Assembly (NCBI RefSeq): GCF_000017845.1 | Contig: NC_010546.1 | Span: 330,001 to 362,000 of the forward strand | Length of the DNA: 32,000 nucleotides | Direction of reading: 5' to 3' | DNA from: Crocosphaera subtropica ATCC 51142 | GTDB taxonomy: Bacteria; Cyanobacteriota; Cyanobacteriia; Cyanobacteriales; Microcystaceae | In this document: one piece after another, positions 21,607 through 22,155 of the stretch | Numbering within the stretch: the first letter of the stretch is position 1 | Layout of the letters: each line of letters starts with the position of its first letter | The notes under the pieces: model-generated | The model's database searches: none | The model's input: only the letters and a program-made list of their open reading frames with translations | Told to the model about the DNA's origin: nothing | Made by a program: the position numbers and the translations under genes

Positions 21607-22155
21607 ATGCAATTAATCACCCGAAAATTTAATGTTAATGAGTATCACAAAATGGCAGAAACAGGAATTTTGACCCCAGAAGATAGGGTGGAATTAATCA
21701 AAGGAGAAATTATTGCCATGTCACCTATTGGCCGAAAACACGCTGCTACTGTTAATCGATTAAATCAGTTATTGTGCCAAAAATTTTATAATAAAGTTAT
21801 TGTTAGTGTACAAAATTCTATCAGATTAGATAATTATTCTGAACCGCAGCCTGACATTGTTCTCTTAAAACCTCGTTCTGACTTTTATGAAAGTAAAATT
21901 CCTGAACCTGAAGACATTTATCTCTTAATTGAAGTGGCTGACAGTACCATCAAATACGATCAAGATGTGAAATTACCACTTTATGCTGAAAGTAAGATTT
22001 CTGAAGTTTGGATCGTTAATTTGAATAACAAAACTTTAGAAGTATATCGTCAACCTCAAAATAAAACTTATGTAGAACAAAAGAAAAATGTTCAATCTAT
22101 TTCACCTATAGCTTTCCCCGAAACTACGTTAACAATTAATGATATTTTTAGTTAA
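21607..22155 (+). CDS. Uma2 (DUF820) family PD-(D/E)xK putative endonuclease embedded in the cmr operon
   Basis: [11 protein letters not shown]...[11 protein letters not shown]...PQPDIVLL...[35 protein letters not shown] is the Uma2 pattern with D, E-x-(n)-K core positions present. The gene starts 6 nt after the cas10 stop (AGGAG at 21592-21596) and ends 2 nt before the cmr3 ATG. Confidence 0.85.

Follow-up and report, generated by a model that had tools for sequence, protein, structure and literature searches.

In a type III-B CRISPR operon of Crocosphaera subtropica (Cyanothece) ATCC 51142, cas10 and cmr3 are separated by a gene of the Uma2 family, and we consider it rather likely that this gene is an autonomous or selfish passenger, carried along by the operon but dispensable for Cmr function. 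The window, i.e., the whole stretch of DNA analyzed, comprises 32,000 nt of NC_010546.1 (positions 330,001 to 362,000; GCF_000017845.1), and window coordinates are used throughout. The Uma2/COG4636 gene, which encodes a PD-(D/E)xK nuclease as predicted from Pfam, PADLOC, and an AlphaFold2 (AF2) model, occupies positions 21607 to 22155 on the plus strand, starts with ATG, and codes for 182 aa that are 100% identical to ACB49703.1/WP_009546842.1 of the same organism. In related systems, Uma2 has repeatedly been lost or has decayed while the rest of the system persists. An initial annotation of this DNA had proposed either a recruited effector or Cmr subunit or a selfish hitch-hiker; the latter fits better, with the qualification that Uma2 at this junction is old, recurrent, and under purifying selection, and hence is no one-off accident.

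The geometry of the junctions, first described in the initial annotation, was confirmed in full. At the 5' junction (21593 to 21606, plus strand), an AGGAG Shine-Dalgarno (SD) site at 21593 to 21597 overlaps the last cas10 codons directly upstream of the cas10 TAA, the cas10 open reading frame (ORF) ends at 21600, and a 6-nt gap (caaact) separates the stop from the Uma2 ATG. At the 3' junction (22153 to 22160, plus strand), the Uma2 TAA ending at 22155 is followed by the 2-nt spacer tt and by the cmr3 ATG at 22158, giving TAA-TT-ATG. No SD is evident for cmr3 at this junction, and, with the start located 2 nt after the Uma2 stop, translation of cmr3 is probably re-initiated after Uma2, which would make an imprecise loss of Uma2 costly. 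In a scan of the stretch from cas10 to cmr6, no terminator-like sites were found at the Uma2 junctions and promoter-like matches there were at chance level; an internal promoter or terminator at the junctions was rejected. The GC content of Uma2 (~0.33) equals that of its flanks with no compositional discontinuity, and a recent horizontal insertion visible by composition was rejected on these grounds. No structured RNA in the window was matched in Rfam. Looking up guessed locus tags turned up no expression data for Cyanothece 51142.

A survey of cas10-cmr3 neighborhoods, which the initial annotation had suggested, was run, and Uma2 was found to recur. A Cmr3-seeded scan of GTDB species representatives yielded 20 related III-B loci, 5 of which have Uma2 between cas10 and cmr3. 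The gene is intact in Cyanothece BG0011 (L005, 93% identity to the window copy), in a metagenome-assembled genome (MAG) of Microcystaceae (L008, 79%), and in Pleurocapsa (L023, 60%); it is frameshifted in Spirulina (L014), with cas10 and cmr3 still open, and carries an internal deletion in Merismopediaceae (L024). Context look-ups of Uma2 homologues added intact junction copies in L050 (88%), L051 (72%), and Hydrococcus (L048, 61%), and the plasmid records of Synechocystis PCC 7338 and 7339 (L063 and L064) have a RefSeq-annotated "Uma2 family endonuclease" between cas10 and cmr3. Not counting the window, at least 8 loci have this arrangement with an intact Uma2, and 4 have it in decayed form (L014, L024, the Synechocystis plasmid pSYSA, and Synechocystis strain B12). 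Co-location with cas genes thus recurs across Crocosphaera/Cyanothece, Microcystaceae, Pleurocapsa, Hydrococcus, Spirulina, Merismopediaceae, and Synechocystis.

A Cmr subunit would be expected in essentially all loci of the subtype, and Uma2 is not so distributed: it is absent in 15 of the 20 GTDB sister loci, and most of the plasmid-borne III-Bv loci checked lack it or have a decayed copy. Its presence is patchy on the neighbor-joining trees of both Cas10 and Cmr3. Apart from the junction copies, no Uma2 was found in the ~200 kb of the 20 sister loci, and a general enrichment of Uma2 around III-B loci was rejected. In pSYSA of Synechocystis 6803 (L057, NC_005230.1), the 181-nt cas10-cmr3 spacer (4820 to 5000) is an internally deleted Uma2, with a remnant ORF from 4847 in which ~16 N-terminal codons run out of frame into ~14 C-terminal codons; the remnant keeps the N-terminal MQLLTRKFAVDRYYQK and the C-terminal FPELKLDLDRIFT*. 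A similar remnant is present at cas10-cmr3 in Synechocystis strain B12, and Synechocystis PCC 6714 has no Uma2, its cas10-cmr3 junction reading TAA-TT-ATG. The CRISPR3 system of Synechocystis 6803 is reported to be active in interference assays (PMC12464536 and PMC6546367), and since its Uma2 is only a dead remnant, Uma2 appears to be dispensable for III-Bv interference.

Comparison of the junctions bore out the view that Uma2 was inserted into a conserved cas10-cmr3 synteny. Among the 15 Uma2-less GTDB loci, 13 have a readable, undisrupted junction (L018 lacks upstream sequence and L022 carries a different insertion). A TAATG overlap of cas10 and cmr3 was found in 8 of these 13, in most cases together with a GGAGG-type SD within the 3' end of cas10, and spacers of 11 to 50 nt in the other 5. 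Where Uma2 is present, the 3' junction TAA-TT-ATG is common to the window, L005, L050, L008, and L051, with a TGA stop in L024, and it is kept even where Cas10 is only ~50% identical, which argues for one ancestral insertion followed by inheritance or recombinational exchange. The shared junction sequence thus suggests that the cas10-cmr3 copies trace to a single insertion. TAA stands on both sides of the Uma2 insert, and Synechocystis 6714 has an empty-like TAA-TT-ATG site, which together hint at most at a target sequence. An AGGAGTT-type SD ~8 nt upstream travels with Uma2 in both CRISPR and non-CRISPR contexts; outside the ORF and its SD, the flanks are unrelated between contexts, and no flanking repeats or clear mobile-element ends were found around Uma2. 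A phage origin was also rejected, there being no Uma2 homologue in 50,697 phage records.

Close relatives of the window copy (57 to 90% identity) occur in at least 7 non-CRISPR contexts, and the subfamily is not one that resides mainly next to cas genes. A metagenome scan with the Uma2 protein returned copies that share 82 to 86% identity with the window copy and as much as 90% with the CRISPR copy of L050; they lie divergent from ndhF3-ndhD3-chpY with no cas genes within 6 kb. Further relatives follow obg (79% and 71%) and coaX (72%), in each case at a distance of 27 nt, or lie near a peptidase gene and a chpX-like gene (67%), and free-standing ones were found in Nodularia and another cyanobacterium (57 to 60%). 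In a neighbor-joining tree of these short proteins, restricted to copies whose context is known, none of 300 bootstraps recovered the CRISPR copies as a clade; the CRISPR copies of Crocosphaera clustered with the ndhF3-side copies at 80%, and L051 (CRISPR) grouped with L049 (non-CRISPR) at 78%. No alignment column separated CRISPR from non-CRISPR Uma2, and a CRISPR-specific residue signature was rejected. The ratio of nonsynonymous to synonymous substitution rates (dN/dS) was 0.12 to 0.24 among CRISPR copies and 0.10 to 0.28 between CRISPR and non-CRISPR copies, and these similar values point to purifying selection on the protein under the same regime in the CRISPR context.

In L053 and L055 (obg), in L001 (coaX), and in the L057 remnant (cas10), the gene upstream has the same orientation as Uma2, and its stop codon is separated from the Uma2 start by exactly 27 nt. 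These 27-nt leaders share only an SD, and the spacing may be a coincidence or a clue to cassette insertion.

That the gene belongs to Uma2 and retains an intact core, as the initial annotation had it, was upheld by profile and alignment. The match to Pfam Uma2 (PF05685) has an E value of 1.8e-31 and 109.4 bits (gathering score 27) and covers profile positions 2 to 171 of 172, far beyond chance; Uma2 is the only Pfam domain, spanning residues 11 to 177 of 182. The EVWIVNL motif is present in the window protein together with the other motifs quoted in the initial annotation. PADLOC matched Uma2 to the single-gene phage-defense candidate PDC-S03 (E = 4.9e-19). The active site of the family has been defined as an H-PD-EXX-K variant of the PD-(D/E)xK site with the Lys migrated to the next helix (Feder and Bujnicki, PMC551604), and its conservation was assessed in an alignment of 46 Uma2 homologues. 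The conserved His, H45 (codon at 21739 to 21741, plus strand, as for the codons that follow), is kept in at least 90% of the sequences, and the PD half-motif P82-D83 (21850 to 21855), E109 of the EXX element E109-V-A (21931 to 21933), and the migrated catalytic Lys K122 (21970 to 21972), which falls in helix 115 to 128 of the structural model, are invariant.

The AF2 model of Uma2 is a single compact domain with a predicted local distance difference test score (pLDDT) of 94.4 and has a restriction-endonuclease-like fold resembling TT1808 and Ava_3926. The best Foldseek matches in the PDB were 6okh, 9y1l, 1wdj, and 3ot2, with E values of 3e-11 to 1e-7 and template modeling (TM) scores of 0.63 to 0.77 (6okh, E = 2.7e-11 and TM 0.77; 1wdj, E = 9e-8 and TM 0.74; 3ot2, E = 1.2e-7). 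In full-length hidden Markov model match, size, H-PD-EXX-K site, and fold, the protein therefore resembles the Uma2/DUF820/COG4636 family (PF05685), whose solved members are TT1808 (1wdj), Ava_3926 (3ot2), 6okh, and 9y1l. From alignment and model together, this is a genuine PD-(D/E)xK nuclease gene whose product is probably competent in catalysis. Biochemical data on members of the family were not found in the literature.

Neither the Pfam scan nor the AF2 model revealed a CARF, SAVED, or other domain for sensing cyclic oligoadenylate (cOA). cOA-activated PD-(D/E)xK nucleases are known as ancillary proteins of type III systems, among them NucC and the Can1/Card1 class, and share with Uma2 the restriction-endonuclease-like core encoded alongside such a system. 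They differ in being larger and in having a nucleotide-sensing surface or a CARF domain, whereas Uma2 is a single 182-aa domain with no sensor. Foldseek matches to NucC were weak and limited to the core (TM ~0.33 over ~90 to 100 residues), and a NucC-like mechanism was rejected because the similarity is confined to the generic PD-(D/E)xK core. Compensation for a lost Cas10 HD nuclease was rejected as well, as Cas10 keeps its HD (LLHDP) and GGDD motifs whether or not the locus has Uma2. Uma2 would be neither a Cmr subunit nor a cOA-controlled effector.

A 2005 study characterized COG4636/Uma2 as a nuclease family that proliferates, is possibly selfish, makes up >2% of the genes in Gloeobacter, and shows "virtually random" insertion and no recurrent neighbors (PMC551604). 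The window copy is like the family at large in its massive paralogy in cyanobacteria and in having no demonstrated function; it differs, together with its positional orthologues, in having the recurrent neighbors cas10 and cmr3. In Microcystis aeruginosa FACHB-524, Uma2 homologues are accessory genes in 2 of 3 III-B clusters (clusters 4 and 5; PMC11855584, 2025). These clusters resemble that of the window in combining a Uma2-family gene with Csx1 and a CARF/WYL-type gene in a cyanobacterial III-B cassette, but the methods list of PMC11855584 places Uma2 after cmr4. Purification after co-expression of Uma2 in Escherichia coli yielded only Cas10, Cmr3, Cmr4, Cmr5, and Cmr1-6, and these five subunits by themselves conferred ~10-fold resistance to phage T4 (PMC11855584). 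The statement of the initial annotation that no Cmr-associated Uma2 function has been described holds insofar as no function has been shown; it does not hold for the association as such, since Uma2 is listed among III-B accessory genes in PMC11855584 and annotated by RefSeq in PCC 7338 and 7339.

The recruited effector or Cmr subunit put forward in the initial annotation is disfavored on several counts: Uma2 is missing from most sister loci, decayed in four, and devoid of a cOA-sensing domain; in sequence and selection it is indistinguishable from paralogues in housekeeping contexts; and in relatives of the system, interference occurs and the complex forms in its absence (PMC12464536, PMC6546367, and PMC11855584). 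A related reading, in which Uma2 is a beneficial, non-essential, lineage-specific accessory effector of III-Bv that is co-expressed with the complex and cleaves invaders at the DNA level or is transiently recruited to it, is possible but unlikely. It would account for the purifying selection on Uma2 and for the intact copies found, always at the one place in the operon, in at least 8 other loci from several genera, and translational chaining should hold Uma2 expression near the level of Cmr3. The family is also a PADLOC defense candidate, non-CARF nucleases are known among type III accessory families (Shah et al., PMC6546367), and the weak core similarity (TM ~0.33) is to NucC, a nuclease of type III systems and of the cyclic-oligonucleotide-based antiphage signaling system (CBASS). 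That similarity, however, does not go beyond the generic core, and no CARF, SAVED, or other sensor domain accompanies it. The absence of Uma2 from 15 of 20 sister loci, its decay in 4, the reported activity of CRISPR3 in Synechocystis 6803 with a remnant only, the lack of CRISPR-specific residues in a set of copies that is polyphyletic with housekeeping-context paralogues, and the failure to see Uma2 in the purified Microcystis complex (PMC11855584) all speak against such an effector.

We regard as very unlikely the proposal that Uma2 is an addiction or stabilization module, i.e., a solo toxin-like nuclease that penalizes loss or rearrangement of the CRISPR locus. It draws on the designation of Uma2, which forms paralogue cassettes, as a "likely solo toxin" (Makarova et al., 2009; PMC2701414), on the RelE/ParE toxin genes inside sister III-Bv operons, and on the suggestion that toxin-antitoxin (TA) and DUF820 genes stabilize the hoxEFUYH operon of Synechocystis 6803, in which the DUF820 gene sll1222 is embedded (Kopfmann et al., PMC4963859). 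Like the window gene, sll1222 is a Uma2-family gene wedged into the operon of a multi-subunit enzyme and co-transcribed there; the host operon differs, and the comparison is one of context and not of sequence. In the window, by contrast with a TA pair, no antitoxin partner or small ORF adjoins Uma2, whose neighbors are cas10 and cmr3, and internal deletions removed Uma2 in pSYSA, B12, and L024, with the flanking genes kept in pSYSA, so the gene did not prevent its own loss. A further reading takes the ORF as a mere translational relay from cas10 to cmr3, with selection on ribosome passage and not on the protein. The absence of a recognizable SD for cmr3, whose start is 2 nt after the Uma2 stop, and the prevalence of the coupled TAATG among Uma2-less junctions would suit it, but dN/dS of 0.12 to 0.24 with invariant catalytic residues indicates selection on the protein, and the same selection acts on Uma2 copies with no coupled gene downstream. 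The relay is extremely improbable and already largely refuted by dN/dS.

Returning to the passenger, which we favor, the following course of events can be proposed. The ancestral state would have been cas10 TAATG cmr3, the SD of cmr3 lying within the 3' end of cas10. A Uma2 cassette consisting of the ORF and its own SD site would have entered precisely at this stop-start junction of a cyanobacterial III-Bv operon, most probably in a single event in the distant past. With Uma2 in place, coupling would be relayed from the cas10 stop over 6 nt to Uma2 and from the Uma2 stop over 2 nt to cmr3, and the arrangement would then have been inherited or exchanged among III-Bv loci of several genera. Uma2 would be transcribed from the effector operon, and translation of cmr3 by re-initiation after it would make the gene "hard-wired". 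The protein would act alone as an Mg2+-dependent nuclease, a candidate selfish recombinogenic nuclease, solo toxin, or stand-alone defense protein. Its persistence could reflect selection that acts on Uma2 as such, alike in every context and perhaps reinforced by gene conversion with paralogues, and also the cost of disrupting the cmr3 coupling. A more general and quite unlikely extension is that Uma2 genes are undescribed promoter-less, self-propagating nuclease cassettes (ORF plus SD) that lodge, co-oriented, just behind the stop of a transcribed gene or at a stop-start junction, live off the transcription and translation of the host operon, and are homogenized by gene conversion; the cas10-cmr3 junction of III-Bv would be one long-term niche, with incidental defense possible.

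Several observations weigh against a mere passenger. Uma2 has stayed intact at the junction over saturated synonymous divergence (dS > 1) in at least 5 genera, and a useless passenger is not normally so long-lived unless it is maintained by gene conversion or by constraints on coupling. In a comparison of the window with L008, Uma2 (79% identity) is better conserved than Cmr3 (60%) and Cas10 (50%). Synergy of Uma2 with CRISPR is possible, the family being the phage-defense candidate PDC-S03 of PADLOC. The trees are of the neighbor-joining type and built on short proteins. The Microcystis Uma2 may be of a different subfamily or at a different position, the experiments on it left its effect on immunity unaddressed (PMC11855584), and a missing band in that purification is weak evidence against transient binding.

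The family membership was annotated before, and Uma2 in III-B cassettes is mentioned once in the literature and visible in RefSeq. What appears to be new is that a single lineage of Uma2 occupies a conserved niche, probably of one origin, at cas10-cmr3 across several genera, that the spacer of the well-studied pSYSA CRISPR3 is a dead Uma2, and that the CRISPR copies interleave with housekeeping-context paralogues. The findings argue mainly against the gene being a new Cmr nuclease subunit, and they carry a caution for CRISPR biology: tight embedding in an operon, even with translational coupling, does not make a Cas component. Among the cyanobacterial gene families with no assigned function, Uma2/COG4636 is one of the largest, and the intact (PCC 7338 and 7339), decayed (6803), and empty (6714) states in transformable Synechocystis offer a practical test of host benefit versus pure selfishness.

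The operon around Uma2 has the gene order that had been read from the sequence, namely, Cas10/Cmr2, Cmr3, a CARF-HEPN Csx1/Csm6, Cmr4, Cmr5, and a long Cmr6. On the plus strand, cas10/cmr2 (18517 to 21600; TIGR02577, E = 5.6e-49; PADLOC Cas10b, 1036 bits) has both the LLHDP (HD) and the GGDD cyclase motifs and is followed, beyond Uma2, by cmr3 (22158 to 23348; PF09700, E = 2.5e-59), the CARF-HEPN csx1/csm6-type effector gene (23333 to 24637; PADLOC CARF_HEPN, E = 1.5e-183), cmr4 (24642 to 25535; TIGR02580, E = 7.7e-26), and cmr5 (25545 to 26087; PADLOC Cmr5, E = 2.4e-70). The last gene (26197 to 27990, plus strand; PADLOC Cmr6, E = 9.9e-55) encodes a Cmr6 of 597 aa that aligns to the long RAMP protein of pSYSA; no Cmr1 domain was detected in it, but its length and this alignment point to the Cmr1-Cmr6-fusion type known from III-Bv systems. 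Synechocystis CRISPR3 has such a fusion (PMC6546367). A strong intrinsic-terminator-like hairpin (28022 to 28049, plus strand) closes the operon 3' of cmr6. Upstream of cas10 lies a gene for a putative WYL/WCX-domain regulator (17126 to 18370, plus strand; PADLOC WYL/Csx1, E = 7e-75; Pfam WCX and WYL).

The adaptation module (15339 to 16994, minus strand) is divergent from the effector genes and consists of csx18 (16707 to 16994), cas1 (15718 to 16710), and cas2 (15339 to 15698). A small hydrophobic ORF upstream of cas1 matched the Csx18 profile NF040558 (E = 1.5e-27), which supports a Synechocystis-CRISPR3-like III-Bv assignment, and cas1 and cas2 matched TIGR00287 and TIGR01573. No cas6 was found among the window ORFs tested with Pfam, other profiles, and PADLOC. 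With csx18-cas1-cas2, a long Cmr6, and no cas6, the host locus is a Synechocystis-CRISPR3-like system of subtype III-Bv. The host locus and CRISPR3 of Synechocystis 6803 (Behler et al., 2018, cited in PMC12464536 and PMC6546367) share cas2-cas1-csx18 divergent from cas10-cmr3-cmr4-cmr5-long Cmr6. They differ in that pSYSA has no csx1 between cmr3 and cmr4, where the window has Csx1, and in that pSYSA has a Uma2 remnant only, whereas Uma2 of the window is intact.

The III-Bv loci with Uma2 are visibly mosaic by recombination. In L005, the part from cas2 to Uma2 is 93 to 99% identical to the window, and cmr3-cmr6 belong to a different variant (68%, 29%, and 28% identity). In the same locus, a deletion at ~3030 to 3110 fuses the end region of the WYL-regulator gene to codon ~241 of cas10 (MRDFWAGSW...), with loss of the Cas10 HD domain. 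L008 (identical to L002 to L004, MAG JTS-RE221) has CAA-to-TAA nonsense codons in cmr3 (codon 181) and csx1 (codon ~178), found in identical DNA in the NCBI MAG and the Logan assembly, with the same split gene calls in a third assembly; cas10 and Uma2 remain open, and this system may be freshly inactivated with Uma2 still intact.

Other insertions were seen at cas10-cmr3 and elsewhere in sister operons. A 4.8-kb element with two tyrosine recombinase genes, a gene for a DUF6262 protein, and a 23S-rRNA-IVP four-helix-bundle gene occupies the cas10-cmr3 junction in a Stigonema ocellatum MAG (L022, 1202 to 6000), and a lone four-helix-bundle gene does so in a plasmid of Picosynechococcus PCC 7003 (L059, 1608 to 1964); the junction seems to tolerate or attract small insertions. 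RelE/ParE toxin genes are situated between cmr4 and cmr5 in a plasmid of Leptolyngbya BL0902 (L062, 3957 to 4420), with a small unannotated ORF just upstream, and inside or at the end of the III-Bv operon in a plasmid of Cyanobacterium aponinum (L061, 4938 to 5125). Sister III-Bv operons also house other small selfish genes, and cyanobacterial operons of this subtype visibly collect them.

Downstream of the effector operon in the window, an ISL3-family transposase gene (28083 to 29309, minus strand) separates the cmr6 terminator from a short CRISPR array with 4 repeats (29597 to 29858, with no strand assigned). Two degenerate copies of the array repeat stand beyond cas2 (14963 to 15075), and the array may be eroded or split.

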